Virus record (IMG/VR): IMGVR_UViG_3300044825_000698
Span: 1 to 64,000 of that record
DNA from: a virus
Direction: 5' to 3' (one strand)
DNA: 64,000 nucleotides
Under the pieces are notes generated by a model, which worked only from the letters and a program-made list of their open reading frames with translations, was not told the origin of the DNA and did not search any database. Positions within the stretch are counted from its first letter, which is position 1. Each line of letters starts with the position of its first letter. Positions 4,958 to 55,812 of the stretch are shown here, piece after piece. The translations under genes and the position numbers were made by a program.

Positions 4958-5449
4958 TTACTTTATTAGTCCTAGACCCTTAGAGAGACGCCTAGAGACA
5001 TCCCGTTCACCTGGGCCAACTGTACCCACCATGTCTTTCTTACCGGATTTAGGTGCTTTAGGTTCTTTAGGTCGACCTGTCTTGAGATCACGACCTTCAG
5101 CAATACGGTTTTTCATTGCCTCAGCGGCGATCATGGCACGCATAGGGGTACTAGCAGTACCGGTAGTTGTGCGAACATTTGTATTGAATCCACGGGCAAC
5201 ACTTGACCGCTTTTCGCGTCCAAGGTCTACCTCACCGGATGTCGGGTCACTTACGTCGTCGTGTGTTTGCCAAGTATAATGACCTTTAGGTTCGCCATAA
5301 GAGTCAGTACCACTAACGACTGCACCGGCAAGCCCGCTAGTTGGAGTCCGTCCCTTTACATACGTGTCATATGGGTCGGAGCGCCAACCCAATTCCTGGG
5401 CGGTGCGCTTACCTGCGTGAAGTTCACGTCCACGATGATCTGATGCCAT
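4958..5449 (-). CDS. hypothetical basic protein
   Basis: 163-aa ORF with AGGAG RBS. Confidence 0.6.
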   Translation of the reverse strand: MASDHRGRELHAGKRTAQELGWRSDPYDTYVKGRTPTSGLAGAVVSGTDSYGEPKGHYTWQTHDDVSDPTSGEVDLGREKRSSVARGFNTNVRTTTGTASTPMRAMIAAEAMKNRIAEGRDLKTGRPKEPKAPKSGKKDMVGTVGPGERDVSRRLSKGLGLIK

Positions 5450-5457
5450 GGCTACTC

Positions 5458-5583
5458 CTAACGTCCTAAGCCGTTACCTGGTCCTGTAAGAAGACCGCCC
5501 TGAAGTCCACCTCCGGTGAGGGGAACGGGACGGGGCTTCTTTTTCTTCTTAGAAGTCGCCTTTGGTTTCGGTTTCTTAGTCAT
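5458..5583 (-). CDS. small Lys-rich peptide (not in ORF track)
   Basis: MTKKPKPKATSKKKKKPRPVPLTGGGLQGGLLTGPGNGLGR. Confidence 0.45.
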   Translation of the reverse strand: MTKKPKPKATSKKKKKPRPVPLTGGGLQGGLLTGPGNGLGR

Positions 5584-5725
5584 AGAAGTAGTCCGAGGAG
5601 TGAGAGCGTTGCTTGCTTCGTTTGCTATCTCGTGCCTCGTACTTGTTGTACTTCTTGTTGTAATTGAACTCAGCGAGGTCCTCTTTAAAGTCCTCGTTTT
5701 CGTAACTTTTATGCTTCTTAGACAT
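5576..5725 (-). CDS. small hypothetical protein (not in ORF track)
   Basis: MSKKHKSYENEDFKEDLAEFNYNKKYNKYEARDSKRSKQRSHSSDYFYD. Confidence 0.45.
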   Translation of the reverse strand: MSKKHKSYENEDFKEDLAEFNYNKKYNKYEARDSKRSKQRSHSSDYFYD

Positions 5726-5755
5726 AGGCGTTTCTATGACAAGTTTACCATAATG

Positions 5756-6037
5756 CTAACGAATGACGGGCTTGAAGGAGATGGCTGAAATGGTGTCGCC
5801 ATTCTCTCCTGGGATGTCATCGAAACCGATGATGAAGCAAAGGTCGATACCCCGTGGGGCCACGAATCCTCGGGCAATAGCGCAGGCTTTCACGGCCTGG
5901 TTCACGGCGCTGGCACCGATGGCACGCATCTTGGGCGACTGCCCAGCAACTACGCCACGAGCAACAATAGATCCTACACTCTGTGGGCTACTGCTACCTG
6001 ATACTTTGATTATGTCGTCAGCCGACTCTTGGGACAT
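5756..6037 (-). CDS. spoVS: stage V sporulation protein S family (Alba-like fold)
   Basis: IKVS..SSPQSV...RAIGASAVNQAVKACAIARGFVAPRGIDL closely matches the SpoVS signature AIGAGALNQAVKAVAIARGFVAP.G.DL. Confidence 0.9.
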   Translation of the reverse strand: MSQESADDIIKVSGSSSPQSVGSIVARGVVAGQSPKMRAIGASAVNQAVKACAIARGFVAPRGIDLCFIIGFDDIPGENGDTISAISFKPVIR

Positions 6038-6073
6038 GGTTGTACTCCTAGTGTTCCTGGTTCTCAGGTCAGT

Positions 6074-6436
6074 TTAGGAGTAGTCAGCCTCTCCTAGGAG
6101 TTCAACAAAGTCAGAAAGACGCATAACAACGTAGGAATCACCTACGGCTTTTTCTCCCTTACCAGCCCGCTTAACAACTAGGGCAGGTACAGCGTCATTC
6201 GCTCGGGCCGCCTGTTCGACCGTGTCGTCGAGCCATCCGCTTAGGTCATACTTCTTATGATTCTTACACTGGAGAATGGCCTTATGACCATCGGGGCGTT
6301 CGATTCCGTGGATGTCACCGGCGTCATCGCCGCCGGTGAGTGCCGTGCGGTGCGCTTTCTTGAATCCCTTATCGTTTAAATAGTTCTTTATCAGGGTCTC
6401 AAATGAGGTTCCCTTAGCCTTACTCCGATTTGCCAT
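6074..6436 (-). CDS. Holliday junction resolvase-like PD-(D/E)xK nuclease
   Basis: SKAKGTSFE, GDI, QCKN motifs typical of Hjc-type phage resolvases. Confidence 0.75.
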   Translation of the reverse strand: MANRSKAKGTSFETLIKNYLNDKGFKKAHRTALTGGDDAGDIHGIERPDGHKAILQCKNHKKYDLSGWLDDTVEQAARANDAVPALVVKRAGKGEKAVGDSYVVMRLSDFVELLGEADYS

Positions 6437-6593
6437 GTAACGGTCCTACGTATGGTTCCCAAATGATCTGGGGGCGTTTTCCGCATAGTTTACAGAACCC
6501 GCCTTGCCCGGGTGGAACGACGGGCCAGTCCCGACAACAACGTCCGATGATCAGATCCTCAAAGACGTGTAGTTCAGGCTTGTCAGTACTCAT
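6420..6593 (-). CDS. small Cys-containing hypothetical protein (not in ORF track)
   Basis: MSTDKPELHVFEDLIIGRCCRDWPVVPPGQGGFCKLCGKRP... Confidence 0.45.
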   Translation of the reverse strand: MSTDKPELHVFEDLIIGRCCRDWPVVPPGQGGFCKLCGKRPQIIWEPYVGPLHGKSE

Positions 6594-6915
6594 TGACTGC
6601 CCTGTCGATCGCTTTATACAGGGTGGGCCACTCTTTCTTCATACTGCGCTTGATGTGTTCGTGGTACGCAGGAACGGGTCCCTGAACTGTGAACGCCTTG
6701 ATGATGGGGTCTAACAACCCCTTGAGACGCTCTACCTCATCCTCGTAGGTAGAGTTGTCCTCAACAAGGCCTGCGTAGCCTGCCTGATATCCAATCAGGC
6801 GCCTAATCTCAGCCGATGCCCGACATTGGAGGCATTCTCCGCAGTAATACGCCCCCATGACAGCACAATTGGCGTCAAGTTCGGCTATCAGATGGAGGGT
6901 TGAGTCGTCAGCCAC
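6583..6915 (-). CDS. cassette-array hypothetical protein
   Basis: probable GTG start in CCGTGGCTGA junction; CGECLQC; AEIRRL and EVERL motifs. Confidence 0.55.
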   Translation of the reverse strand: MADDSTLHLIAELDANCAVMGAYYCGECLQCRASAEIRRLIGYQAGYAGLVEDNSTYEDEVERLKGLLDPIIKAFTVQGPVPAYHEHIKRSMKKEWPTLYKAIDRAVNEY

Positions 6916-7069
6916 GGCTTTGCTCCAAGTCTGAAACACGGTCTTCCAGTTCCGAGATACGTTGCCGCAATTTGTCTACCTCCGCTACCGAGTCTCGTAG
7001 CCGTTCAATCTCCGCTTCTAGAACACCGTTCTCTTCAATAAGGTCGTCAATAATTTTATTATTGTCCAC
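6908..7069 (-). CDS. cassette-array coiled-coil mini-protein (not in ORF track)
   Basis: VDNNKIIDDLIEENGVLEAEIERLRDSVAEVDKLRQRISELEDRVSDLEQSRG. Confidence 0.55.
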   Translation of the reverse strand: MDNNKIIDDLIEENGVLEAEIERLRDSVAEVDKLRQRISELEDRVSDLEQSRG

Positions 7070-7265
7070 CGCGCAACTCCGTCCATGCGTCTAGCGCATC
7101 GTCCCAATGTCCTGTGCGGATGCCTTGGGCGAGGGCATCACCTGCTTCTCGTAGCCATTCAATCTCCTTGACGGCATCACTGAGCAACATGGCTTGGTCA
7201 AGAACATGGGGGTGGATTGCGTATGGGATGCGCTCCCGTAGTCGGGTCACGATGTCGTCAGCCAC
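7059..7265 (-). CDS. cassette-array mini-protein (DDIVTRLR family)
   Basis: ADDIVTRLRE...EIEWLR; GTG start in junction motif. Confidence 0.6.
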   Translation of the reverse strand: MADDIVTRLRERIPYAIHPHVLDQAMLLSDAVKEIEWLREAGDALAQGIRTGHWDDALDAWTELRGGQ

Positions 7266-7326
7266 GGCGGGCCTTTTCTTGGTCAAAACAATGAGGCATG
7301 GGCGGTCGAAACGGTGAATCAGCCAC
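7258..7326 (-). CDS. 22-aa cassette-array peptide (possibly a remnant)
   Basis: bounded on both sides by CCGTGGCTGA junctions. Confidence 0.3.
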   Translation of the reverse strand: MADSPFRPPMPHCFDQEKARRG

Positions 7327-7393
7327 GGCGACCCCCAAAGTAAATAAACCAGGCAGTAATTATTCCAGCGATTACAGCAAAAGCGTTAGTCAT
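7319..7393 (-). CDS. 24-aa single-TM peptide
   Basis: MTNAFAVIAGIITAWFIYFGGRRG. Confidence 0.4.
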   Translation of the reverse strand: MTNAFAVIAGIITAWFIYFGGRRG

Positions 7394-7616
7394 GGTCGGC
7401 CTCGTTCAAGAACTGCTTCATCAGCGGTTCGGGATGCTGATTGCGATGGTGGTCGGTCGTTGAAAGTTCACCGCATGCCAACGCCAGAGCCACACGCAGT
7501 CGCTCAATCTCATCGGCGGCCAGGCACTTGACGCACCTGACCGACCAGGGTGAACCCGGGTCGCCACAGGCCAGGTGGTTTCCCTCCATGAGACGAGTCA
7601 CGATGTCGTAGGTCAT
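7386..7616 (-). CDS. cassette-array mini-protein (DIVTRL...AADEIERLR)
   Basis: motifs seen in translation; CVKC. Confidence 0.6.
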   Translation of the reverse strand: MTYDIVTRLMEGNHLACGDPGSPWSVRCVKCLAADEIERLRVALALACGELSTTDHHRNQHPEPLMKQFLNEADHD

Positions 7617-7855
7617 GATGGTTCTTCTTTCAATTTCTGCATTTGGCTTTCAGTAATGGTTGGGCTTGTCCCATAGGTATTGATGACCATTCCAACCGGA
7701 TGCAGGAACGTCCCTAGACGGGCAACTTCGGCTCGTAGCCGTTCAATCTCGTCGGCGGCTTCCCAGCAAAGCGACCCCACGCGCCCGGCCTCTTCTAGTC
7801 GGGTTATGAGGTCATCAGATTTCATATCTATTCCGTCAACGGAAGAGTTATGCAT
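7613..7855 (-). CDS. cassette-array mini-protein (DLITRL...AADEIERLR)
   Basis: motifs seen in translation; start uncertain (7825 or 7855). Confidence 0.55.
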   Translation of the reverse strand: MHNSSVDGIDMKSDDLITRLEEAGRVGSLCWEAADEIERLRAEVARLGTFLHPVGMVINTYGTSPTITESQMQKLKEEPS

Positions 7856-8339
7856 TGAATCGGCTTCCACGGTTCTCCTTGGAGTGGAGACCAATACGAC
7901 GGCTCAATTCACGGGACAACAACTGCGCCCCACGTTCACAACGGTCGAATACTGACTCGACCAACTTGCGATATGCCCGAGACTGCCGGTGAAGATCTTG
8001 CTGGGCGACAACACGAGAGTCGATGTCACGGCGGGCCTTAGCGATTGTAACCCTGTCTCCCTTGGCCTCAGCCCCCCATTGTTCGATAAGGACCTTGGCC
8101 TCCAGCACACGCAGGAAGTTGGCCTCACGTTCCTCAGCGATCTCGGCGGTAACCATCTCGGCCTTGGCGTAGGAAACCCAGGACATGAACTCGCTGTACA
8201 AGTCCATCAAATCATTGTCGTCCATGTCGTCCAGGTGCCTGGGCAGGTCGGGGACGCTTTCGGCTGGGCGTGCTGGCAGGCTGAACTTGTTGTTGAACTT
8301 GGCTAGAACCTGGTCTTCGTCGTTACGAATTACTCGCAC
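7848..8339 (-). CDS. helical protein, possible UvsY-like recombination mediator
   Basis: coiled-coil character and position in the RecA/Cas4-like cluster. Confidence 0.35.
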   Translation of the reverse strand: MRVIRNDEDQVLAKFNNKFSLPARPAESVPDLPRHLDDMDDNDLMDLYSEFMSWVSYAKAEMVTAEIAEEREANFLRVLEAKVLIEQWGAEAKGDRVTIAKARRDIDSRVVAQQDLHRQSRAYRKLVESVFDRCERGAQLLSRELSRRIGLHSKENRGSRFNA

Positions 8340-9195
8340 TCCAGCACTCCTTGTTGTACGGGCACTTCTTACACTCCGACATTACCTGTGATGCCCACAT
8401 GGGACGAGGCGGTGGAGTGTCACCATCCAGATGTTCAACCACAGTCTGGCATCCCTGGATGATCGGGTCCATGATTTCCTGCTGGAACTCAATGATGAAC
8501 TCTTTGACTTCCTGCGACGGCTTCCATTCGTAAATGAGGATGGCCGTATCCACCTTACGGCAGTACATATAAATCGTGGCCTGGCGAATGTGGGAAGCAA
8601 ATGGCTTCTTGATGTTCTTCCACATACCGTCAAGGGTTAGTTCCTTATTCTGGTATGCATTAAACAACGTGGGGTTTTCCCAGCGTACTGTGCCGGGGCC
8701 AATGCTCTTTATCTCAATGAGGGCACGGCCCTCGTTATCGATAATCTCACCGTCAGCATGGCCCATGATGTGCAAATCGTCATGACGAATTGGCACCTCA
8801 CGGTAATAGATGTCCTTGCCAAAGCATGACTGGCAGATATTGGGGGCATCAGCGTAGAACGAGTTGGAGCAGGTGTTACAGCCCCACAGACCACAGAGGA
8901 CCCCAGCCTTCTGGAGCCAGGTCTGCCACTTGTGATGGATGCTGTGGCCCTCGGCAAATACGTTGAGACGCTGAAACGACAAGTTCTCTAATGGCGCTGG
9001 GTATCCTTTGATCTTGTACCAAGACGACCGGGGGCACCAGTCCTTCTTAGATATTTCACTTGGGTGAAGGTGCTTGGTGTCCCGACCAGCGTTCCTGAGT
9101 TCGGTTTCTCGCATTAACGCCCGCTCGACAACCGGTATCAGACGGCCACGGGTCTTGAATGAGTCCTTGTAACCCTGGTTAACCCAATCAGACAT
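8323..9195 (-). CDS. Cas4-like / PD-(D/E)xK exonuclease
   Basis: HPSEI...CPR, GHSIH, GHADG, IEIKS, HIRQATIYM, C-terminal CKKCPYNKEC. Confidence 0.85.
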   Translation of the reverse strand: MSDWVNQGYKDSFKTRGRLIPVVERALMRETELRNAGRDTKHLHPSEISKKDWCPRSSWYKIKGYPAPLENLSFQRLNVFAEGHSIHHKWQTWLQKAGVLCGLWGCNTCSNSFYADAPNICQSCFGKDIYYREVPIRHDDLHIMGHADGEIIDNEGRALIEIKSIGPGTVRWENPTLFNAYQNKELTLDGMWKNIKKPFASHIRQATIYMYCRKVDTAILIYEWKPSQEVKEFIIEFQQEIMDPIIQGCQTVVEHLDGDTPPPRPMWASQVMSECKKCPYNKECWSASNS

Positions 9196-9520
9196 TGATC
9201 AGCGCCAGGAAGTCATCCTCGTTCAGGATGACAAAGTTCCTGCCCCCCAGGTCGAACTGGAGAACAGCGATTCGGTCATCCATGATCGCTCGTGTCCTGA
9301 GTTCATCCAAGTCCTTGAACTTGATCGAGTACGACTTGGTGTTCTCGGTCAGTTTGTTCTCGATGAGGAACTGCTCGGCCCGCACGTCATTCTTTCGAAG
9401 CCAGCCAGAACCGGACCCTGCGTTACGTGAGCCACGATAACGGTTAGCCGTTCTTTCCTCTTGTTTACGGCTTGCACGCATGATGCGTTTCTGCCTGTCG
9501 CCTTCTCCGCCAAAGATCAT
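9188..9520 (-). CDS. small PD-(D/E)xK nuclease (resolvase-like)
   Basis: QE...GSGSGWLRKNDV...IENK. Confidence 0.65.
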   Translation of the reverse strand: MIFGGEGDRQKRIMRASRKQEERTANRYRGSRNAGSGSGWLRKNDVRAEQFLIENKLTENTKSYSIKFKDLDELRTRAIMDDRIAVLQFDLGGRNFVILNEDDFLALINV

Positions 9521-10566
9521 CTCAGGAAATACTCCATCGCCTTGTTCTTCAATTCATTCTGGAGGGTGATGTCTTCACGAACACCCAACAGGAGGGCATC
9601 CTTACCTTGCCATTTCTGGTCACCGTAGTTGTAGTACGCACCCGTACGGGTGATAATGTCCACAGCAATACAGATGTTTACCACGTCCTTGATGACATCA
9701 AAGTCACCAAGATGGAACGTACCGAAGTCGGCAAAGTAGAAGTCAACCTGAGCCACCTGCTGTGGGCGGTAGGTCTTGTTCTTCAGGGTCCGGGCACGGA
9801 TGGTCTGACCGACGGCTTCGTCTTTATCCTTCAACCACTCGTCACGCTTGACTTCGACACGAGTGAAGTAGTGGAAGTTCTTGGCACGGCCACCAGGAGT
9901 CGTACGGTTGTCGCCGTACATGACACCGATCTTCTCACGCCACTGGTTGATGATGAGTCCCGTACAACCACGGTCTTCATTAACGAGAGACCGTTTCTGC
10001 GCCTTAGACGACTTACGCAAGAACTTGCCGGTAAGGCGAGCACCAATACCGACCGAGAACTCGTCCATCATCTTTTCTGCTTCGTCACCTGGAACCAGAG
10101 CCGGAAGCGAATCAATGACGATGCAATCGACGGCTCGGTTATCCAATGCACGAATAACGAGATCATAAGCGTGCTCCATGACGTTGGTTTCGACTACCCA
10201 TAGGCGGTCAAGGTCTACGCCAATGGCTTTGGCGTACTCGGGAACGAACTCCTCGGCGGCAATCCACATGGCAATGAAGTCAGGGTCTAATGCCTGGTTA
10301 GCGGCGATGGTCTTGTAGGCGACCGCTGTCTTACCTGATGACTCATCGCCAATGATCTCCGACCACTGGTTCGTTGGCCAACCGCCACCGAGCATGAGGT
10401 CGAACGCCAGTACGCCCGTAGTAATGCGTGGGAGTTCTTCCCTCACAGCGCTTCCCTGAAGCACTATGTCTTCGCCATACTTCTTGTTTACGGACGCAAT
10501 GATTGAAGCAAGAGTTTCCCTCTGCTCAGTTTTAGACACGTTGTTTCCTTTGGTCAGGTTCCCCAA
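9517..10566 (-). CDS. recA: RecA/UvsX-like recombinase
   Basis: TTGVLAFDLMLGGG, Walker A GDESSGKT, VIDSLPALVP, INQWREKIGVMYG..TTPGG. Confidence 0.95.
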   Translation of the reverse strand: MGNLTKGNNVSKTEQRETLASIIASVNKKYGEDIVLQGSAVREELPRITTGVLAFDLMLGGGWPTNQWSEIIGDESSGKTAVAYKTIAANQALDPDFIAMWIAAEEFVPEYAKAIGVDLDRLWVVETNVMEHAYDLVIRALDNRAVDCIVIDSLPALVPGDEAEKMMDEFSVGIGARLTGKFLRKSSKAQKRSLVNEDRGCTGLIINQWREKIGVMYGDNRTTPGGRAKNFHYFTRVEVKRDEWLKDKDEAVGQTIRARTLKNKTYRPQQVAQVDFYFADFGTFHLGDFDVIKDVVNICIAVDIITRTGAYYNYGDQKWQGKDALLLGVREDITLQNELKNKAMEYFLR

Positions 10567-10991
10567 GAACCCTCGATGGCCTGATTATAGATGCCATTCC
10601 AGCCACACTCAAAGCACCTGGGGGCTGGTGCTTTACCGGCGATGGTTGTATTACTTGCTCGGGAACTGCGCCCGAACACATTGCTACTACCGCAGTCAGG
10701 GCAGGTCATGTTACCTTCACGGCGCATGGCTTCCCCACCACGCCACAAACGGATGGCATCACCCATACTGATTTGGTCAGTAGGAGCACGATTCTCATCG
10801 AGAACCTGTTGGCGGTCCTGAGACTGTTGGACGGGCTGGGGCGACGTAGGTACCTGGACCGGGAACCGCAGAGGGGGTGATGACGGGGGAGTCGATTGGG
10901 TGTTAGTAGGTTGTGGCCGTGGATTATTTGATAGGCGTTTTGCCCACCAGTCATTACTCATCGTCTTCGTCCTCCCCGAAGTCCGCATCAA
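10554..10991 (-). CDS. Zn-ribbon protein
   Basis: CPDC and CFEC pairs. Confidence 0.6.
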   Translation of the reverse strand: MMRTSGRTKTMSNDWWAKRLSNNPRPQPTNTQSTPPSSPPLRFPVQVPTSPQPVQQSQDRQQVLDENRAPTDQISMGDAIRLWRGGEAMRREGNMTCPDCGSSNVFGRSSRASNTTIAGKAPAPRCFECGWNGIYNQAIEGSWGT

Positions 10992-11406
10992 ATGATATGT
11001 CTAGGTCGATTTCTTCGTCCGTAAGAAACTCTAGCAGACGGTTAATTCGGTCTGGGTCCAGAACTCCATTGTCCTGTACTGCTAGTTCTAAGTATTCGCT
11101 ATCTATTAGATAGGATAATAAGGCGATACTGAAACAGATCAACACCGTCTGAGTATTTTTCAACTCGTCTTCATCGAGGTCCTGGAAAGACAGAAGAACC
11201 TCGGTCATCCAGTCGGCGCACTCTCTGACCTGGTCTGTTATGCCGAGAGCGGCAAGTGTCATCCACTTCTGGACGGTGTCGATCAGTTCGTTCTGCTGGA
11301 CTTCCAGGGAAGGAATAGCGAACCCCACCGAGTTGGCGAGAGCCTGACCATCTGATACCGATAGAGCAAGATAGAAGTTTCGTTTGTCTACCGGTGTTGA
11401 TGGCAT
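10954..11406 (-). CDS. hypothetical acidic protein
   Basis: 150-aa ORF with acidic tail. Confidence 0.6.
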   Translation of the reverse strand: MPSTPVDKRNFYLALSVSDGQALANSVGFAIPSLEVQQNELIDTVQKWMTLAALGITDQVRECADWMTEVLLSFQDLDEDELKNTQTVLICFSIALLSYLIDSEYLELAVQDNGVLDPDRINRLLEFLTDEEIDLDISFDADFGEDEDDE

Positions 11407-11407
11407 A

Positions 11408-13498
11408 CTATTTACCTTTCGCCTCCGACCAACTATAGGCCGAATGGCAGGACACTTTCAGTGGTATACCATCGTACACTATTCCGTCGCCCATCGCCTG
11501 GATGAACAACGGCTCTAGTTCGTCGACCTTATCCTCCGGAACAACGATGACCAACTCGTCGTGAACCTGAACCATCATCCTGGCCCCGGTTCCGTTAAGG
11601 GCGTCATACACATCGACCATCGCCTTCTTACAGATATCGGCGGCGGACCCCTGTACTACGGCATTGACGGCTTGTCGTTCGGCTCGTGACCGTAACGCCA
11701 TATCGGTAGAGAGGATGTCCGGTAACCGGCGACGACGGCCCGACATAGTTGTAACAAAGCCCTTTGTCATGGCTTCCCGAACTACTGATTGCTTCCATTT
11801 TGTGATCCCTGAGAACTGTTTGTAATACTGGTCGATAACGTATTTAGCATGATCTTCTTCAATGCCGGTGGTACGGGCAAGTTTCTGCGCCCCACCGCCG
11901 TACGCCGTAAGGAAGTTCACTCCCTTACCTAACTGTCGCTCATCCGGTGTTACCTCGGATACAGGCTTGTTAAGCACCAAAGCGGCGGCTCCCGCATGGA
12001 TGTCAGCGCCGGTCAAGAAGAACTCGCTCATCTTCTTATCTCCGGAGAACATACACATCACCCGAAGTTCGATCTGGTCATAGTCGGCCACGAGCATCTT
12101 GTAGCCCTCGGGGGCCACGAACAAACCACGGACGCTGGAGTCACGGGGGATGTTCTGGAGGTTGGGATTGCTCGACGACAGACGACCCGTGGCTGTGCGG
12201 TGTAAGTGGAACGACGGATGAAGTGAACCTTTGTACAACTTGGGTAAGAGGCCATCAACATACGTTGACTTCATCTTCTTGGTCTCGGCCCACTCCAGAA
12301 GCATGGGCACGACCGGATGCTTACTCTCCAACTTGCGTAATGTTTCTTCGTCGACCGAGGCGGCTCCTGTGCCCGTCTTCTTGGACGGTGTAAGACCAAG
12401 ACCACCTTCACGCCTCTTGTTGAACAGCAACTCCTGCTTGTGCTTGGTGCTATCCGGGTTGAACCCCGGTGGGGCGTAATCCATCATCCGCTTCAGCAGA
12501 TCGGTCAACGTGTTATCCAGGTCTTTGCCGAGAGTACGCATCGAGCGGTGGTTAACCGGGATGCCGTTGTCTTCCATGTCCATGAGTACACGGAGAACCC
12601 TCATGTCCTGGCGCAGACACTCAAGCAACTGATCGTTGTTCTTGATTCTGCGCCATAGCAGGCGATATAGGTTCCAGGTCCAGCGCACGTCACGGTGCAC
12701 ATACAGGCAGGCGGTCGAGAACGGGACCTCGGTGATAATGGCACCGATCTTTCCTGCTCCCTGATACGCCGAGAACCCTTCAAAGTTATTACGGATAAGT
12801 CCGTCCAGGCTGTACTCGCTTAAGTTCTCGTCCAGGATGTGTTGCATGATCATGGTGTCCATGAATGGGTCGGGTGGCAACTCATCGTCGTAGTACTTAC
12901 GGATGGAGCGAGCATCAAACTTCACGTTGTGCCCGATCTTCAGGATGTCGCTAAAGAACAGGGGGCGCAGGACGCTGAACACCTCGGAGCGAGACATCTG
13001 CGCTGGGGGTGGGCTGAACACGGCTGGCTTGAAGTACTTGGACTTGGCCATCGATTCCTGGCCACTCTTCAAGATCGCTCGGTAACCCTCAGGTGGAACA
13101 GTAGAACCGTCGCCACGTTCGGCTGGCTCGATGACCTCACCGTTAGGGTGCCCCATGGGAATGGCCCATGACCGTGTCTCGGTGGCAATACCTATCCAGA
13201 ACACCTCGTTACGCATGGGGTCCAGGGCCAGAGTGTTACGCCACTTGTTGGTGATGTTCTCTTTGGCTCGGGCCAAGATGTCAGGAGACTTGGTCTTCAG
13301 GCTGGCCGTGTGGTCTTTCCACTCGGCTTCTATCCAGTCGAGAACGTCGGGGTGTAGTTCGACAATGCCACGTGTTTCCACGTCGAAAACGAAGTGGCCC
13401 GTTCCCTGAACAACACGGACGATCTCGTCCAGTTCTTCCCTGGTAGATACAACGTAGGGGGCCATGTGGCCCCCTACGCTCGACTCTGTCGTTGTCAC
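11408..13498 (-). CDS. polA: family A DNA polymerase with 3'-5' exonuclease
   Basis: ExoI FDVET, GHNVKFD, TGRLSSSNPNLQNIP, motif A ADYDQIELRV, motif B RQLGKGVNF, motif C QVHDE. Confidence 0.97.
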   Translation of the reverse strand: MTTTESSVGGHMAPYVVSTREELDEIVRVVQGTGHFVFDVETRGIVELHPDVLDWIEAEWKDHTASLKTKSPDILARAKENITNKWRNTLALDPMRNEVFWIGIATETRSWAIPMGHPNGEVIEPAERGDGSTVPPEGYRAILKSGQESMAKSKYFKPAVFSPPPAQMSRSEVFSVLRPLFFSDILKIGHNVKFDARSIRKYYDDELPPDPFMDTMIMQHILDENLSEYSLDGLIRNNFEGFSAYQGAGKIGAIITEVPFSTACLYVHRDVRWTWNLYRLLWRRIKNNDQLLECLRQDMRVLRVLMDMEDNGIPVNHRSMRTLGKDLDNTLTDLLKRMMDYAPPGFNPDSTKHKQELLFNKRREGGLGLTPSKKTGTGAASVDEETLRKLESKHPVVPMLLEWAETKKMKSTYVDGLLPKLYKGSLHPSFHLHRTATGRLSSSNPNLQNIPRDSSVRGLFVAPEGYKMLVADYDQIELRVMCMFSGDKKMSEFFLTGADIHAGAAALVLNKPVSEVTPDERQLGKGVNFLTAYGGGAQKLARTTGIEEDHAKYVIDQYYKQFSGITKWKQSVVREAMTKGFVTTMSGRRRRLPDILSTDMALRSRAERQAVNAVVQGSAADICKKAMVDVYDALNGTGARMMVQVHDELVIVVPEDKVDELEPLFIQAMGDGIVYDGIPLKVSCHSAYSWSEAKGK

Positions 13499-13502
13499 GA
13501 GG

Positions 13503-14249
13503 TCAGTCGTCCAAGTCCTCGATGACGATGTCCATCAGTTCCTTCCGAGTGGGAATCGGAATGATCTCGGCGGTGTACGAGTCCTTGGTGAACGTCTTGA
13601 TGTCGGCCTCGCTGAGTGCCTCGATCTCCCAGTCCTCAAGATCACGGTCACGGAGCATCTGGTGGTTGGTTGCCGAGGTGGCACCCTTACCCGAACGGCT
13701 CACGGCCCAGTAGTTCTTGGACAACGGTCCCTGACGAGGGTCCTGGTGGAAGTTCTTCAACTGGTCGATGACACGAGCACCGACTTCGTATGACTTGATC
13801 GAGTGGTCTCCGTCCTTAGACAGGAGGACGACGTTGAAGGCGAAGCGCATCGACGGGCGATTACCAGCCTTACACAACGGGCAACCACGCTCGTCGATGT
13901 CATCGATGCAAGTGAACGACTTCTGACCACTGCGCTCTACCCAGTGCTGGCGATAGGTCGCATACGGGGCATCGTTCAAGAACTTGATGACGATGGGTTC
14001 TTCGGTGACTCGCAGACGCTGTGCGTACGGAGCGTCAGCGCTCTTCATCTTTTCGACAGCACCCCATCCACCCTTGATGACACGGGAGGCACTGGCCTTG
14101 ACAGCGGTGCGGTCCTCGTCGTCTTCGTCGTCGGACTCTTCAGCCTTGACGGGCGGGGCTTTCTTGACGGGGGCATCATCGTCGTCGTAACGGCGACGGG
14201 GTGCTTCCTCCGTGATTTCTGTTTCGTCTTCGTCTGTGTATCTGCTCAT
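13503..14249 (-). CDS. single-stranded DNA-binding protein (gp32-like)
   Basis: IKFL..YRQHW...C...CPLC, FAFNV, acidic termini; adjacent to polymerase. Confidence 0.7.
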   Translation of the reverse strand: MSRYTDEDETEITEEAPRRRYDDDDAPVKKAPPVKAEESDDEDDEDRTAVKASASRVIKGGWGAVEKMKSADAPYAQRLRVTEEPIVIKFLNDAPYATYRQHWVERSGQKSFTCIDDIDERGCPLCKAGNRPSMRFAFNVVLLSKDGDHSIKSYEVGARVIDQLKNFHQDPRQGPLSKNYWAVSRSGKGATSATNHQMLRDRDLEDWEIEALSEADIKTFTKDSYTAEIIPIPTRKELMDIVIEDLDD

Positions 14250-14261
14250 GATTTCTCCGTG

Positions 14262-14696
14262 TTAGTTGGGCCAGTTGTCTTTGGTGTGTTTCCTGAAGGC
14301 GACCCAATTGGCCTGGTTTGGGTCATTCAGGTGGAAACGCTCTAGAGCGTCCATCAGGAACTCTACCTGTTCCAGCGAGTAAAGTCTACGACCTTTCGCA
14401 GTTTTTCCAGGAAGTTGTTGCCCCTGTGGAGCCGGTGTCCGGTAATTGGCTTTAGGAATCCAACCACGGGACTCCCACATCCTAACCGTAACGGCTTGGC
14501 GCTGTAACGCTTTGGCGAGTTCCCCAATGGTGAAGAACATACGATCTTGACCGCCTACACGGAACACCTTAGGTTTGGCTCCGTGAAACCTGTCATCTAT
14601 TTCTGGCGTCCGTTTGGTGTTAGGACGATTCTTGGGCGGCGTGTTACCCGGCCAGTCGGGCAAGTCACCAAGGAGATCAAGGGGATCACGAGTCAC
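14262..14696 (-). CDS. MerR-type HTH DNA-binding protein
   Basis: FTIGELAKALQRQAVTVRMWESRGWIP...RRLYSLEQV; GTG start in junction motif. Confidence 0.75.
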   Translation of the reverse strand: MTRDPLDLLGDLPDWPGNTPPKNRPNTKRTPEIDDRFHGAKPKVFRVGGQDRMFFTIGELAKALQRQAVTVRMWESRGWIPKANYRTPAPQGQQLPGKTAKGRRLYSLEQVEFLMDALERFHLNDPNQANWVAFRKHTKDNWPN

Positions 14697-14916
14697 CACG
14701 CACCGCCTCTTCGTACTCGGCAAGTATTGTCTGTTTTTCTTCTGCGGTAAACAACTGCCATTTGCCTACATGGTCAATAGCGTGTTGCAGACATTCCCGT
14801 AGCCGTTCAATCTCGGCGGCGGCTCGCATGGAAATACATGGGTCATCGACTGCTCGGCAGTCGTCTGTACATTGGCACTCTCGCCGTAATCGTGTCACAA
14901 TATCGTCAGTCACCAT
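14686..14916 (-). CDS. cassette-array mini-protein (DDIVTRLR...EIERLR...EAVRG)
   Basis: motifs seen in translation. Confidence 0.6.
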   Translation of the reverse strand: MVTDDIVTRLRRECQCTDDCRAVDDPCISMRAAAEIERLRECLQHAIDHVGKWQLFTAEEKQTILAEYEEAVRGDS

Positions 14917-15205
14917 ACACCGCCTTGTATTTCTGCCATGCTTTTTTAAACTTATTTTCGTTTATGCGAAAACTGGTAACATCGCTTCCGTACTTAGTGC
15001 CAAATTCTGTCCCGGATTGTGCAAATTCTTCACATATCGACCGTAGCCGTTCAATCTCTCGTTCTAAGTGGGCTGAACGGTCGCACTCATTATGTAACGC
15101 GCTAATCCAAAACCCCATTTCTGTATTTGGGTCATAGTTTGTCACGCTCCCGTCTGAAGCAATCCATGTATTTGTTGCCTGTGTTGAACCGTATCCGTCA
15201 CTCAC
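14906..15205 (-). CDS. cassette-array mini-protein (EIERLR...AVYGD)
   Basis: motifs seen in translation. Confidence 0.55.
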   Translation of the reverse strand: MSDGYGSTQATNTWIASDGSVTNYDPNTEMGFWISALHNECDRSAHLEREIERLRSICEEFAQSGTEFGTKYGSDVTSFRINENKFKKAWQKYKAVYGD

Positions 15206-15479
15206 CACGCACCGCCTCGTATTCATCCATCACATCGTCATACCCACATTTACATTTGGACATGTTGCAATGACAGACATACCCCCGCAGATGGTGCGCC
15301 AAGTCATCAGCAAGTCGTTGTAGCCGTTCAATCTCATACAGTGCATCGCAGTAATCACATGGCGTGTGAACGTCTGGAAGCCAGTCGTGGTCATGGCGGT
15401 GCAGGCGTGTCACAATGTCGGCAACCGTCTGGTCTTTACCAAGATTAAAGTTCATGTTGACAACGATGTCGTCACTCAT
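15198..15479 (-). CDS. cassette-array mini-protein (DIVTRL...EIERL...EAVRGE)
   Basis: motifs seen; CDYC and CHC..CKC. Confidence 0.6.
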   Translation of the reverse strand: MSDDIVVNMNFNLGKDQTVADIVTRLHRHDHDWLPDVHTPCDYCDALYEIERLQRLADDLAHHLRGYVCHCNMSKCKCGYDDVMDEYEAVRGE

Positions 15480-15912
15480 CGTCGTACGTCTTTCCTTCGA
15501 CGACCTTAAATGCCCAGGATGTCTTCTCTTCGTAGAAACCTTCGATGATCGGCTCTAGTTCTGGGTTCTTCCAGACCAGGGCCATAAGAGCGTCCACGTC
15601 TAGCACTTCGACGACCTTCTTAACGGTGTCCCAATGACCTTCGGCCTTGGCCCAGTTCTGGGCCGCATGCTCATTTAGCGACCGACTGACACGCTTCTCG
15701 TTCTTCAGTTGATGCGTATTAGCCGGGAGCCATACATGGCCACGGTCATCGGTTGCGCCGTACTTCTTGACGTAACCACGAAGTGCTTCCTTGAGTTCGT
15801 CGACACGGTCGGTCGCCTTCTTGGCGAAATCCTTTGACTTCTCATACTCGTCAATCAGTTTCTGGAGATACTGATTATCGGGCTTCTGGTCTTTAATGGT
15901 CCTGGGTTCCAT
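15472..15912 (-). CDS. hypothetical protein
   Basis: 146-aa ORF in replication operon. Confidence 0.6.
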   Translation of the reverse strand: MEPRTIKDQKPDNQYLQKLIDEYEKSKDFAKKATDRVDELKEALRGYVKKYGATDDRGHVWLPANTHQLKNEKRVSRSLNEHAAQNWAKAEGHWDTVKKVVEVLDVDALMALVWKNPELEPIIEGFYEEKTSWAFKVVEGKTYDDE

Positions 15913-15918
15913 GATTCC

Positions 15919-17463
15919 TCACACTGATGTTTCTTTTAGGAAGGTTGAAAGACTGCCGAGGGTGACATCAAATCCACCCTTGATGTCGTGGTGTTTACCA
16001 TCTACGAACGCCTCGTTGATGGATTTCTTCTGCTGGAGCATTTCATACTGGCGTTCCTCGATGCTTCCCCTCATTACGAATGTCGCAATCGTAACGTGGG
16101 GGAACTGCGATGATAGCCGAATGATGCGGGCTTCCCGCTGTTCCAACTTACCACTCGACCAGGGCAAGTCGTAACTAATGAGGTAGTTGGCCATTGGCAG
16201 GTCCACGCCATAACCGCCAGCATCCGACGACAGAAACAGTCTGGTGTCTGGGTCGGTTGAGAACTGTTGTTTCGCATCATCTCGCTCCTGGGCAGTCATA
16301 CCGCCCATGAACAGAACGCTACGAGTGAGCGGTTGTGTGCGCTTCTTGATCAGGCGCAGGTTCTCCTTGAAGAAAGAGAACAGGACCACCTTATTCCTGG
16401 GGTCTTCGTCTAGAACGTCCGTGATGTAGTCGATAACAGCATCCAGTTTAGGTGTACTTGTAACACCAGTCATGATGTTCTTACTGACTAGTTCGTGGGC
16501 GTACTGACTCCCCTCGTTGCTGTTCGGATTCTCAAACAGTGCGGCGGATCTGGTAACGAGTTCCGGGTTATCGCAGAGCATCCGTAATGCCGTCAGACGG
16601 GTCATGATCTGGCCTTGAGCCTCATTAGAGGCCGCATCGTTGTAATGGCTCCACAGGTTAAATGCCGCCCCGTGCTGTCCGATCACAGTACTCAACTGAT
16701 GAAGAAGATCGGACGAAATACGATTGTAAACCTCAGCACCCTTGCCGTCGAACTGTACTGGGATTACCTGATGGATGATCTTGGGCAACTGGTCGGCTAT
16801 GTCTTCCCTGGTTTTACGAATCATGCACTCTTTCAGGGAGTCATGCAGTGCGTCCAGATTCTTATAGCGGGTTGGGCGACCAAAGTGATCACGGACGATA
16901 AACGTCCGGTCGAATAAGTCAAACCTACCGAGGATAGATGCGTCCACGAACTCCATGATCGAGAACAGTTCTTCGGGCCGGTTCTCGATGGGCTGACCTG
17001 TCAGAGCGAATCGGTAGTACACCGGCTTGGCCAACTTCTTCAGCATCTTAGAACGCTTGCTCGATCTCGACTTGAGCATTGTTGCTTCGTCCACAACGAT
17101 GCACTGCCAAGACAGGTGCTTGTAATAGGCGCTATCTCGTATTAGGGACTCGGGGTTAACGATGATGTATTTGGACGAAAGCGCTTTCTTCCATTTCTGT
17201 TCCCGTACCTTCGGCGTACCATCGATAACCACCACAGATGAGTTAGTGAACTTATTGATTTCACGCATCCACTGGTACTTCAAGGATGCTGGAACCACGA
17301 CCAGACATCGGTCGATCTCGTTCAACGCAATGAGGCGCTCGACTGCCGCAATGGTAGTCACCGTCTTACCTGCACCCATGACGAGGCCCAGCAGAAGTTG
17401 ACCACGGTCGATCATCTTGTCGACCGACTCTTGCTGGTATGGGTACAGGCTTCCGGTAAACAT
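15919..17463 (-). CDS. SNF2-family (SF2) helicase
   Basis: LYPYQ, MGAGKT, VVPASLKYQW, DEAT, LTGQPIEN, GGYGVDL, EQREARIIR. Confidence 0.93.
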   Translation of the reverse strand: MFTGSLYPYQQESVDKMIDRGQLLLGLVMGAGKTVTTIAAVERLIALNEIDRCLVVVPASLKYQWMREINKFTNSSVVVIDGTPKVREQKWKKALSSKYIIVNPESLIRDSAYYKHLSWQCIVVDEATMLKSRSSKRSKMLKKLAKPVYYRFALTGQPIENRPEELFSIMEFVDASILGRFDLFDRTFIVRDHFGRPTRYKNLDALHDSLKECMIRKTREDIADQLPKIIHQVIPVQFDGKGAEVYNRISSDLLHQLSTVIGQHGAAFNLWSHYNDAASNEAQGQIMTRLTALRMLCDNPELVTRSAALFENPNSNEGSQYAHELVSKNIMTGVTSTPKLDAVIDYITDVLDEDPRNKVVLFSFFKENLRLIKKRTQPLTRSVLFMGGMTAQERDDAKQQFSTDPDTRLFLSSDAGGYGVDLPMANYLISYDLPWSSGKLEQREARIIRLSSQFPHVTIATFVMRGSIEERQYEMLQQKKSINEAFVDGKHHDIKGGFDVTLGSLSTFLKETSV

Positions 17464-26593: not shown

Positions 26594-28035
26594 TACGAAG
26601 TACTAATCCCTCCACTAATGGTCAGATTGACGGTACCTTTTCGCAGAAGACCAATCTCCGGCATGTTAGTAACCAAAGCGTTCGACGCATCGTAAATACC
26701 GTATGAGGTGACTACTGCGTATTCGACACCTACTACGTTAAATATTGCTCGGTACACTTCGCCTATACGGATCTCCTGCCCAATGAATAGATCGTCATAT
26801 TGGAATAGGCTGTCTATAGCCGAAACAACATCACGCTCAATCCATGGCGCTACATAACGGTCGAGAACCTTCACCGTAACGTCCATGTCAACTCGGTACA
26901 CCGGTAGGTTAGTAGCCGCTGTTACGGTCACTCCCGCCATAGCCAGAGGTTGTAGTAGGGCTTCTGCCTCGTCTTGCATAGCGGTCGGGATCGGTACAGA
27001 TGCTCCAGTAAAAGACGTGTAGTCATTTACATATGGAACTGCGTAAACCGTAACCGTCGAAGTACCAGAGTTGTAACTGGCAACCGTCTTAGATGCTCCA
27101 GATACGTTGATAGCAAGGTCTGCGTAGTCACGAAGGGTGACTGCACGGTTCTGAGACCTAGTTACACTCTTAATAGCCCGTTTAATAGACTCAACACTTT
27201 CAATGTTTTGCCCACCGGTAGCCGCAGATGATGACTGTATAGTCAGGTCAGCCGAAACGGAGTTTCTAAATGCCGTAATCGTGTTGGCTGGTAAGTTCCC
27301 GTCCTCACCATTACTAATAGTGTACGAAGCCGTTATTCGCACACCAGCAGGGGGTATCCGACCATTGATTCGGTTACCGAAATAGATCTCAGTCTCTTCG
27401 TCGGCGTTGACATATACGACAAACGCTCCTACTCCCGTATTTACGGTGTAGATAGAATCTACTTTCTGCCATTCACTTGGAGATGCTGGGTCTTCGTAAA
27501 CGAACACCCTTACGCTGTCTGGAGCGATATTCTCGCTACGTAGTACGTATCGCTGACCGACTTCTCCGGATGCTGACGTGGTCAGTACCTCTTCAGTTAC
27601 ACGTTCACCTTCTACGACGTTGATTGTCGATGAACCTTCGGCTGGCACCGACGCACCAGTAGTGCTGTAGAAGTAGTAGAACTTATTGTCGTACTGCGCT
27701 ACGAATTCTGTTTCTTCAGGTATACCGACACTTGCTCCAGCGTTGGCAATGGTTACTGTGGCCGTTGCCGAGGTGCGGTAATTAGGTTTGTAGTCAAACA
27801 GGTTGGCGTACGCCAGCACGCTCTCACGCTGTGTAGCGGTATCTACGAATGATTCACCAGCCGCCCGGTCGATGTAGTAATGAAAGATGTCTCCCATGTA
27901 CGCCCATAAGTCAACGAGCAACATGCCGAAGTCAGATGGGTCACGATCAGTCCATTCAGGGGCTACCACGGAAGCCCGGTTCAGCAAGTCTTGTTTGATC
28001 GTGCTGTAATCTCGTGATGAGTAGTCAAAGGCCAT
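26593..28035 (-). CDS. baseplate J/gp47-like protein
   Basis: DYSSRDY...PEWTD...DFG, ATQRESV, RAVTLRDY. Confidence 0.9.
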   Translation of the reverse strand: MAFDYSSRDYSTIKQDLLNRASVVAPEWTDRDPSDFGMLLVDLWAYMGDIFHYYIDRAAGESFVDTATQRESVLAYANLFDYKPNYRTSATATVTIANAGASVGIPEETEFVAQYDNKFYYFYSTTGASVPAEGSSTINVVEGERVTEEVLTTSASGEVGQRYVLRSENIAPDSVRVFVYEDPASPSEWQKVDSIYTVNTGVGAFVVYVNADEETEIYFGNRINGRIPPAGVRITASYTISNGEDGNLPANTITAFRNSVSADLTIQSSSAATGGQNIESVESIKRAIKSVTRSQNRAVTLRDYADLAINVSGASKTVASYNSGTSTVTVYAVPYVNDYTSFTGASVPIPTAMQDEAEALLQPLAMAGVTVTAATNLPVYRVDMDVTVKVLDRYVAPWIERDVVSAIDSLFQYDDLFIGQEIRIGEVYRAIFNVVGVEYAVVTSYGIYDASNALVTNMPEIGLLRKGTVNLTISGGISTS

Positions 28036-28049
28036 GGGTTATCCCTTTA

Positions 28050-28454
28050 TTAAATAATCGAATCTTCGGTGAGTTGACCAGGGGCCGCAATTTCAACTTG
28101 GGCTACTTGTAAAGAGCCTAAAGGCAATCTGTATATGGCGTTAACAACTGCTGTAGTAGGCTCACCCGTCTGTGAATAAAAACTGTTGTCTACCGCAATA
28201 TCAAGTATTACTGCTCCAGATACATAACGCTTTAAATCTTGAATAGCATCTACACGATAATCAGCAAACTCCATAGGAACTGTAATGTCAAAGAGTAGGC
28301 GAGACGTTGATGCCCCGTATGACGGATTCATTACCCGTTCTCCCTCAGAGGTGACGAGTACGTTGGCTATCTTCTGCTCCACCATGGTGGACCGGTCAGC
28401 AGTAAAGCCAACACGACCACCATCAAATGAGAATGGTACTTTAATTGACTTCAT
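28050..28454 (-). CDS. baseplate wedge GPW/gp25 family
   Basis: VLVTSEGERVMNPSYG. Confidence 0.85.
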   Translation of the reverse strand: MKSIKVPFSFDGGRVGFTADRSTMVEQKIANVLVTSEGERVMNPSYGASTSRLLFDITVPMEFADYRVDAIQDLKRYVSGAVILDIAVDNSFYSQTGEPTTAVVNAIYRLPLGSLQVAQVEIAAPGQLTEDSII

Positions 28455-28518
28455 ATAGAGCCTCCGACAACAATCGGTACCATTATATAGTTTATATATA
28501 GTTTACTAAAGTAACACA

Positions 28519-28812
28519 TCAATGGTACTGCTTTACAGTTGCTGGAAGGGCAGTAATCGTAATGGTTGTCGATGGGGCGGGAGGAGGGTTAAGAAGATAT
28601 ACATTCGTCATCTCGGCATCTTCAACTACCACTAGCACCATGCTTTTCTCAGCAGGAACTCCCCAACCTGACGCTGACTTGTTCATGTTCATCTTGGACA
28701 CCACTATTGATTCTGTGGTCCCCAACACAGACGGTATTTTCACGATGACATTGCCGGTGGAAGACGATGAACTTACCACTAGTGCTTTATGGATACTCAT
28801 GGGGCTACGCAT
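28519..28812 (-). CDS. short baseplate spike-like OB-fold protein
   Basis: HKALVV...VIVKIP...VP....VLV; position between hub and gp25. Confidence 0.45.
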   Translation of the reverse strand: MRSPMSIHKALVVSSSSSTGNVIVKIPSVLGTTESIVVSKMNMNKSASGWGVPAEKSMVLVVVEDAEMTNVYLLNPPPAPSTTITITALPATVKQYH

Positions 28813-29968: not shown

Positions 29969-30207
29969 ACTGGTATGCGGAGTACAGTTCCCGCAGGTAT
30001 GCGATCAGGCCACTCTATTTGTGGATTAATGTCTGCTATTTCCCAGTATCTAGTACTGTCACCAAGAAACTGAGATGCTAGGAGAGCGAAAGTGTCACCA
30101 TCACGTGATGTGTAAACGGCGTAACCAACGAGATCCTGCGGTTTTCTATTGGCGGATCTACCATCATCAGATAGTTCATATCGGGAAGTAGTTTTATAAA
30201 CGGCCAT
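29965..30207 (-). CDS. LysM-like baseplate protein (P2 gpX-like)
   Basis: GDTF..LA..FLGD...YWEIADINP...IPAGTVLRIP. Confidence 0.8.
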   Translation of the reverse strand: MAVYKTTSRYELSDDGRSANRKPQDLVGYAVYTSRDGDTFALLASQFLGDSTRYWEIADINPQIEWPDRIPAGTVLRIPV

Positions 30208-30215
30208 ATACGATC

Positions 30216-54991: not shown

Positions 54992-55014
54992 AATTGCTAC
55001 TCCTAATTTATGTG

Positions 55015-55248
55015 TTAACGGATTATTGCGTTGATTTCGTCCTCATCTAGACCAAGATTCATTAACTTATCACGTGCAGAAGACCTCTTAGCCGCTATTT
55101 CAGCAAACGAGTTTTCACGGGCGACACGATCAGCCTCAAACTGTACTAAATCGGCTTCTCGTTGAGCAACCTCTGCGGGTGTGGACATACGAGTTTCAGT
55201 ACGACCATCAGGGTAAGTGGTTGTGATCTCAAACGGCTCTATGGGCAT
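55015..55248 (-). CDS. small fibre-associated/chaperone-like protein
   Basis: R.ST..E...SARDKL..LGL.EDEI pattern following fibre genes. Confidence 0.55.
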   Translation of the reverse strand: MPIEPFEITTTYPDGRTETRMSTPAEVAQREADLVQFEADRVARENSFAEIAAKRSSARDKLMNLGLDEDEINAIIR

Positions 55249-55265
55249 TTTTTCTCCTGTTTTAA

Positions 55266-55811: not shown

Positions 55812-55812
55812 A

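Follow-up and report, generated by a model that had tools for sequence, protein, structure and literature searches.

The DNA analysed here (the window) comprises positions 1 to 64,000 of the IMG/VR virus record IMGVR_UViG_3300044825_000698, which is 99,044 bp long and has direct terminal repeats. Nearly all genes of the window are carried by the minus strand. It contains two arrays of small overlapping genes, referred to below as cassettes. Together the arrays hold eight genes of one family, most of which share short conserved motifs (the anchors) at the start, in the middle and at the end of the gene. In an earlier reading made from the letters alone (the sequence-only reading), such fixed anchors had been proposed to let variable half-genes be exchanged in frame. 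This proposal was supported by related loci, by the codons used at the middle anchor and by chimeras at the protein and DNA levels: the arrays occupy variable slots, their half-genes are reassorted in other phages, and the nucleotide breakpoints lie at the anchors.

Organization of the two arrays

All features described here are on the minus strand, and each open reading frame (ORF) of the arrays overlaps the next by a few bases. The order in array 1 is g7613, g7386, a 24-amino-acid (aa) hydrophobic ORF, a 22-aa remnant, g7059, g6908 and g6583, followed by the small Cys-rich gene g6420. Gene g7613 (7613–7825, 70 aa) has the start motif DDLITRL and an EIERL anchor at 7735–7750. In g7386 (7386–7616, 76 aa), EIERL is encoded at 7497–7511 by other codons, the sole copy of this kind. 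The hydrophobic peptide ORF (7319–7393) ends in a copy of the junction 10-mer described below (7319–7328), and the remnant ORF (7258–7328) lies between this copy and the next one (7258–7267); both of its junction anchors are present and its interior module is absent. Gene g7059 (7059–7265, 68 aa) has a GTG start within the junction, a start anchor at 7234–7265 and an EIEWL anchor at 7151–7166. Gene g6908 (6908–7069, 53 aa, coiled-coil-like) has an EIERL anchor at 6997–7012 and ends in the junction 10-mer at 6908–6917. In g6583 (6583–6915, 110 aa), the middle anchor is a variant, E-I-R-R-L (6796–6810). Gene g6420 (6420–6593) does not belong to the family and lies within the block missing from the closest relative. 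The transmembrane peptide, the remnant and the Cys-rich loops were as the sequence-only reading had described them.

Array 2 consists of three genes. Gene g15198 (15198–15479, 93 aa) has an EIERL anchor at 15320–15335 and an end anchor at 15202–15218. Gene g14906 (14906–15226, 106 aa from ATG) has GTG starts inside the end anchor and an EIERL anchor at 15043–15058. Gene g14686 (14686–14916, 76 aa) has an EIERL anchor at 14799–14814 and an end anchor at 14693–14709. The end anchor of this last cassette provides the GTG start of a MerR-like core gene (14262–14699).

Three motifs were found in most members: an N-terminal D-D-I-V-T-R-L-R, a central A-A-D-E-I-E-R-L-R and a C-terminal A-V-R-G-E followed by the stop codon. 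One DNA stretch, read in two frames, encodes both the end motif and the start of the next gene. This stretch contains GAGG 6–10 nt ahead of GTG and resembles what would be a compact ribosome-binding, start and stop unit. In other phage groups (L250, L165, L170, L193, L205 and L207; L-numbers designate loci from other phages and P-numbers database proteins), the C-terminal motif is of the type A-L-G-E-K-E, in which GGAG-like codons are abundant. This fits an end motif that doubles as the ribosome-binding site of the next cassette.

Repeated sequences shared by the cassettes

The core of the middle anchor is a 16-mer, GTAGCCGTTCAATCTC (+ strand). Five exact copies are located at 6997, 7735, 14799, 15043 and 15320, and a copy with 1 mismatch at 7151, whereas 0.01 matches are expected in shuffles. 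All copies are on the coding (minus) strand in one codon phase and encode E-I-E-R-L, or E-I-E-W-L at 7151. No copy was found beyond the two arrays when the whole 99,044-bp genome was searched. The junction 10-mer, TCAGCCACGG (+ strand), has three exact copies, at 6908, 7258 and 7319, for an expectation of about 0.12 exact copies (64 kb, both strands). In all three, the TGA stop of one ORF overlaps the GTG start of the next. A repeat search also revealed a 17-mer end anchor, with exact copies at 14693 and 15202 and a variant copy at 14910, and a 15-mer spanning the array 1 junction, with exact copies at 6904 and 7254. No exact repeat within the window exceeds 17–18 nt, and the DNA identity between paralogues drops to chance level directly beyond the 16–18 nt core. 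Thus, the six positions of the 16-mer, the three junctions with their stop/start overlap and the unrelated sequences between anchors, all noticed in the sequence-only reading, were borne out.

Codon choice at the middle anchor

According to the codon usage of the genome, the probability that a copy shares the EIERL codon string is 0.0015, and the 16-mer includes two minor codons, CGG (14%) and CTA (13%). The nine-residue motif AADEIERLR was then scanned in IMG/VR, and the following figures are those among the matches listed. At least 133 copies were found in other phages, encoded by at least 62 codon strings; the string of the window was used in 2 of the 133, and other genomes with 2–3 copies had mostly non-identical strings. 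In 80 related loci, only 18 EIERL copies were present and their codons varied. Five related genomes, three of them 99–100% complete, had 0–2 copies each, and these were not identical. Codon bias, which had been named as one explanation that would overturn the proposal, thus fails to account for the identity. The 16-mer was also considered as a clade-wide DNA element and rejected, since no more than single hits were obtained in the IMG/VR scan and the codons of relatives differ. Judged from these sequences, the peptide is the conserved entity across phages, since other phages vary the codons at the motif, and the base-level identity of the five copies is peculiar to this genome. It suggests recent intragenomic copying or gene conversion.

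We consider it quite unlikely that the 16-mer is a phage-specific cis-acting DNA or RNA signal (for binding, processing or a ribosome pause at the rare CGG-CTA) and that shuffling is incidental. Such a signal would fit five copies identical at every synonymous site despite two minor codons, as well as a base identity specific to this genome. However, the copies are all in one codon phase, inside a peptide motif for which other phages use dozens of strings, g7386 uses other codons in the same array, and the 16-mer is confined to the two arrays. Moreover, no promoter-like or terminator-like site was found at the mid-gene anchors, nor on the coding strand at the junctions. The promoter scan of positions 5400–16000 gave 5 sites for 6.6 expected, none of them at an anchor. 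In the terminator scan, two weak matches on the non-coding strand overlap the 7258 junction (7253–7270), and none was found on the coding strand at the anchors.

Variation of the slots in related phages

With RecA as the basis of the search, 80 related loci were obtained, the phages being of about 93 kb. Of these loci, 57–80 contained the core genes that flank the arrays, and only 0–8 contained the array genes. Array 1 occupies slot 1, which is bounded upstream by a core gene of unknown function (7848–8339, minus strand, conserved in 65 related loci) and downstream by a Holliday-junction-resolvase-like PD-(D/E)XK gene (6074–6436, minus strand, conserved in 62 related loci; PF24608, 1e-7; phrog_244, 2e-29). 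The length of slot 1 varies from 2 to 1625 bp (60 related loci) and that of slot 2, occupied by array 2, from 2 to 3188 bp (41 related loci). In relatives, the slots contain many other members of the cassette family and also a few unrelated genes. Identical gene content in relatives, which would have spoken against exchange, was therefore not what was observed.

The closest relative, L070, is collinear with the window over 13.7 kb with 72–77% identity. The alignment has exactly two gaps, corresponding to window positions 6437–7866 and 14691–15471, and both arrays are missing from L070. In its empty slot 2, the MerR-like gene begins with an ATG that overlaps the stop of the core gene upstream. 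In the window, the same stop/start overlap is used by the ATG of g15198. The MerR-like gene of the window (14262–14723) has lost its own ATG context, and its GTG start is now inside the end anchor of the last cassette.

In L074, a deletion fuses the start motif straight to the sequence that follows the middle motif. The resulting gene (L074:12844-13152) consists of the start motif, the part of a cassette located after the anchor and a homologue of g6420, and it looks like the product of deletions between anchors. In L116 (2785–5972), slot 2 is 3.2 kb long and contains about ten tandem family-like cassettes with their own junction and end motifs. The GC content of these cassettes is 60.5%, compared with 53% in the flanks, and the block looks as if it had been imported from a different phage lineage. 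Larger unrelated genes were seen in slot 1 of L094 (12776–13432), L125 (12731–13294) and L149 (13077–13538). Examined by eye, they resemble genes for a thymidylate synthase of the ThyX type, a methyltransferase and a protein similar to cytidylyltransferases, and the slot therefore accepts more than the cassette family.

Reassortment of gene halves among proteins

Homologues of g14686, g7059 and g7386 were searched for, the set used for g14686 containing 5.8 billion proteins. For the three genes, 121 homologues were obtained. Both halves were conserved in 5 of them and a single half in 116, and the switch occurs at EIERLR. For g14686, 42 homologues were found: none had both halves, 33 had the C-terminal half (C-half) only (75–94% identity) and nine the N-terminal half (N-half) only (75–95%). 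For g7059 (73 homologues), two had both halves, one of which is the protein of the window itself, 63 the C-half only and eight the N-half only. For g7386 (six homologues), the corresponding numbers were three (again including its own protein), two and one.

Single-linkage clustering of the C-halves over-merged low-complexity helices, and partners were recounted per module. The C-half of g7059 was joined to about 30 distinct N modules and that of g14686 to about 16. Conversely, the N-halves of g14686 and g7059 were found with seven and six other C modules, respectively, and several N modules were paired with both the g7059 and the g14686 C-halves. Halves of different window genes were also found joined elsewhere. 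The C-half of g14686 follows the N-half of g7613 in P0004/P0006/P0012 and L268, that of g6908 in P0015 and P0019, and also that of g7059. The N-half of g14686 is joined to the C-half of g14906 in P0036, and the N-half of g7386 to the C-half of g7059 in P0047. The C-half of g7613 occurs with other N-halves in L022/L055/L060, L047 and L149. In some proteins there are two or three anchors, separated by a middle module. The chimeras predicted by the sequence-only reading, with breakpoints in the anchors, were thus found in numbers, among proteins as well as in the DNA described below.

These combinations make it extremely improbable that the genes form an ordinary paralogous family diverging by point mutation around its motifs, with the DNA identity as a remnant of recent duplication. 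The cassettes are indeed tandem paralogues with common motifs, but one half of a gene is 75–97% identical to halves of other genes while its remaining half is unrelated. N modules occur with several C modules and the reverse, a pattern that point mutation cannot produce. In addition, the flanks of the 16-mer are at a random level of identity.

Metagenome assemblers could also have joined cassettes at repeated anchors, in which case the reassortment would be largely an artefact. Most partner proteins are on contigs of 1–5 kb, and two phages can have start anchors identical over 28 nt, an identity that could mislead assembly with small k-mers. The exact repeats of the window (17–18 nt), however, are below the usual k-mer sizes, and reads of 100–150 nt would span an anchor and both of its flanks. 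The same chimeras were obtained from independent samples or sources (e.g. L022/L055/L060 and L012/L046), protein clusters recur on 12–16 contigs and on contigs of >100 kb, and two complete genomes with terminal repeats contain family genes. An assembly artefact is therefore very unlikely.

Position of the DNA breakpoints

At the DNA level, the window arrays share blocks of homology (84–96% identity) with other loci, and it is at the anchors that these blocks start or stop. The identity of L243 to g6908 (89%) is limited to 7012–6904, where 7012 is the base that opens the anchor and 6904 lies immediately beyond the junction. Counted in 15-nt bins, matches number 1–5 before the anchor, 13–14 from the anchor to the junction and 7 in the following bin, matching being lost about 4 nt beyond the junction. 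The N-half of g6583 (6910–6800, from junction to anchor) is 86% identical to L200 and L268, and its C-half (6793–6585, from anchor to stop) is 84% identical to L047; across the g6583 anchor, the other halves in L200 and L047 differ. L197 and L220 match g7059 over a block that begins 9–12 nt upstream of the anchor and ends at most 10 nt from the stop codon. The start anchor of g7059 has 92–100% identity over 28–41 nt in L047, L071, L117, L007 and L087.

In L268, modules located at 7.8 kb, 14.8 kb and 6.9 kb in the window are contiguous, with 85%, 95% and 86% identity. At the first seam, the two blocks overlap by the 19 nt of the anchor; the second seam coincides with the stop/start joint. The remaining ORFs of this 10-kb locus had no match to the present genome, including at the protein level. 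The C module of g14686 is 95–96% identical in L268 and L273. In L273, it follows a new N module (96% for the C module) and precedes a g7059-like cassette (89%). L274 contains a run of five cassettes linked by the same stop/start joint. Thus, L243, L200, L047, L197, L268 and L273 all have blocks of homology that end in short shared sequences although the genomes are dissimilar elsewhere. The identity of the modules (84–96%) is higher than that of the core to the closest relative, L070 (72–77%), and modules therefore travel separately from genomes.

Joins could also occur at random, by illegitimate recombination independent of microhomology, the anchors marking only the chimeras that are tolerated. 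The middle anchor lies in a continuous predicted helix, where an in-register join would keep the fold. Register variants also exist, such as an extra heptad-like insert past the anchor in the third L149 cassette. Random joining is nevertheless unlikely: dozens of independent N–C combinations meet at exactly one codon, and the parents are near-identical across the seam, as in the 19-nt overlap of L268, where the flanking DNA has no other homology. Similarly, the deletion in L074 links two motifs coding for R-L-R.

Properties of the encoded proteins

The AlphaFold2 model of g14686 (mean pLDDT 82) is a small three-helix protein, with helices at residues 6–13, 28–50 and 58–73. The first two helices are separated by a Cys-rich loop, and the middle anchor is inside the long helix, which would let halves join in register. 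Small coiled-coil products, putatively effectors, had been predicted in the sequence-only reading. Of the cassettes, only g6908 (6908–7069) resembles a plain coiled coil.

Searches of Pfam, PHROGs and NCBIfam with the eight window proteins gave only generic coiled-coil noise, and those of Pfam and PHROGs with ten family members of other phages gave nothing. No toxin or immunity family was found among the cassette proteins by Pfam, PHROGs and NCBIfam. A fold search of BFVD with the AlphaFold2 model gave no match below E = 1. Among cultured phages, neither a DNA nor a protein match for the cassette was found; the DNA polymerase of the phage is itself only ~34% identical to Streptomyces phage enzymes. 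A full-text search of the literature for the motif returned no relevant paper. The ESM Atlas gave only unnamed clusters and a weak Ead/Ea22 lead: in the nearest look-alike cluster bearing a Pfam family, 44% of members have PF13935 (score 0.83, a lead only). Ead/Ea22-like proteins are likewise small helical proteins of phage early regions. This lead received no support from the PF13935 model, which matched neither the eight window proteins at E up to 1 nor the ten other members at E up to 0.01.

By its sequences, the family is widespread and uncatalogued, and its members are small phage proteins of about 50–110 aa. Tentatively, they may be small early binders or inhibitors under diversifying selection, several of them with Cys4 loops.

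Neighbouring genes

The sequence-only reading had placed array 1 downstream of RecA and a Cas4-like nuclease and between two resolvases, and Pfam and PHROGs matches confirmed these genes. Upstream of array 1, the segment 8323–10566 (minus strand) encodes a Cas4-domain exonuclease (8323–9195), a resolvase-like protein (9188–9520) and RecA (9517–10566; Pfam RecA match at 9e-52), with matches to phrog_2506/1706/1990 and phrog_2002. With the PD-(D/E)XK gene that bounds slot 1, this makes two Holliday-junction-resolvase-like proteins; an SSB is also encoded near the arrays. These adjoining recombination genes may drive the exchange, and the arrangement may be a selected system or a side effect of the recombination that phages ordinarily undergo.

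It is highly improbable that the anchors are the target of machinery dedicated to site-specific or templated diversification, of the kind known from integron-like arrays, shufflons and diversity-generating retroelements. Ordered cassette arrays with repeated boundary sequences recall such systems. However, neither the tyrosine nor the serine recombinases of integrons and shufflons (PF00589 and PF00239) were detected in the 99-kb genome, control genomes being positive, nor was a reverse transcriptase (PF00078). The anchors are direct repeats located in coding regions and differ from phage to phage. The sequences of the variable parts are unrelated, whereas in a diversity-generating retroelement they would be point-mutated copies.

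Elsewhere in the window, the GC content is 43% in the stretches 28001–32000 and 54001–56000, compared with 53% for the genome. These stretches may be acquired islands.

A model for cassette exchange

Half-genes and whole cassettes are very probably reassorted by homologous recombination at the short coding anchors. Because the peptides of the motifs are conserved, each leaves a stretch of about 16–40 nt that is near-identical in genes without other relation, and in this model these anchors would act as portable homology. Recombination may be performed by the phage RecA, Cas4-type exonuclease and resolvases, or by host enzymes. Crossovers at the mid-gene anchor would exchange N-halves and C-halves in frame. 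Crossovers at the stop/start junction would insert, delete or reorder whole cassettes, with translational coupling kept. Modules of ~100 nt would thus move between the two slots and between phages, including phages without other detectable homology near the cassettes. In the present genome, the family has expanded to eight genes, and its five base-identical anchors would result from recent copying or gene conversion. The enzymes, the translational coupling and the gene conversion are putative parts of this model.

Several points weigh against recombination at the anchors. With 16–40 nt, they are at or below the usual minimum for RecA-type recombination, and short, diverged exchanges have been credited to Rad52-like recombinases, not to RecA (PMC3945230). 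The breakpoints could partly reflect selection for in-frame, foldable chimeras and not the place where recombination starts; such selection may sharpen the breakpoint pattern. Exact identity of the anchors does not appear to be required for the family to exist, since other genomes with 2–3 copies often have non-identical anchors. Finally, all the evidence is comparative and comes largely from metagenome assemblies, most partner proteins being from short metagenome contigs.

A further possibility, which we consider rather doubtful, is that the anchors are maintained down to their synonymous sites for exchangeability, the arrays forming a combinatorial library of small early proteins. If this were true, gene conversion would reshuffle the library in the course of ordinary infections, both between the slots and with co-infecting phages, and a single phage population would hold many N × C variants at once. 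The early proteins could be, for example, counter-defence or host-takeover binders, and the arrays would be a phage counterpart of cassette-based antigenic variation.

Relation to described systems

Among described systems, the shuffling of PeSL cassettes in T4-type phages comes nearest. A PeSL is an intergenic regulatory unit that combines a promoter with a terminator hairpin, and mini-circles of PeSLs have been demonstrated (PMC2839356; Comeau et al., 2014, PMC4122927). In both cases, small genes of unknown function lie in hyperplastic slots between conserved core genes, and short border repeats are recombination sites for gain, loss and replacement between related phages. The repeats of the window bound units of insertion, deletion and replacement between related phages, and their resemblance to PeSLs is functional only. 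They differ from PeSLs in being coding (a mid-helix motif and an overlapping stop/start joint) instead of intergenic, in the in-frame exchange of half-genes besides whole genes, and in having neither a sigma-70-like early promoter nor a coding-strand stem-loop terminator. The window case thus keeps the logic of PeSLs; what is new is that the repeats are coding and also split genes in half.

In lambdoid phages, conserved boundary sequences are related to mosaicism by short-homology recombination. Experiments and genome comparison have shown that phage recombination acts on short, diverged homologies and that intragenic exchanges of ~100 bp are common (De Paepe et al., 2014, PMC3945230). The short homologous exchange sites, the ~100-bp intragenic segments and the phage-encoded recombination genes are features that this relaxed homologous recombination shares with the arrays. 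The system of PMC3945230 concerns temperate phages, Rad52-like recombinases and a homology due to common descent. In the window, by contrast, a peptide-coding anchor recurs in otherwise unrelated modules, the recombinase is RecA-like and the N × C matrix is combinatorial.

Two further systems are organized in a comparable manner. In polymorphic toxins, variable modules follow a fixed motif (CdiA-CT after VENN, Rhs tips after PxxxxDPxGL) and orphan cassettes are found nearby. The likeness lies in a short conserved peptide motif that is the swap point for variable C-terminal modules, with arrays of spare modules adjoining. Polymorphic toxins, however, are large bacterial proteins with paired immunity genes, and only their C-terminal tip is variable, whereas in the tiny phage proteins of the window both halves vary and no toxin or immunity signature was detected with the three family databases. 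In cassette-based antigenic variation by gene conversion (Neisseria pilE/pilS, Borrelia vlsE), conserved short stretches likewise frame variable mini-cassettes and the reading frame is kept. There, one expression site is served by silent donors of one genome and switching occurs during infection, whereas all copies of the window appear expressible and exchange is seen between genomes over evolutionary time.

Significance

Most small early genes of phages are 'dark matter' without family assignment, and the cassettes provide one reason for this and one mechanism. Because each member is a mosaic of ~100-nt modules reassorted at coding anchors, the family would go unrecognized in Pfam, PHROGs and NCBIfam; a very common family, defined by its motifs, therefore resembles a crowd of orphan genes. 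The cassettes offer a tangible case, open to testing, in which half-genes are exchanged in frame at a conserved helix. Primers placed on the conserved anchors could be used for recovering the whole repertoire of modules from environmental DNA, and the family is a natural set of chimeras for asking what the proteins bind. If the proteins act in the conflict between phage and host, their exchange would be a new way for phages to generate diversity rapidly.

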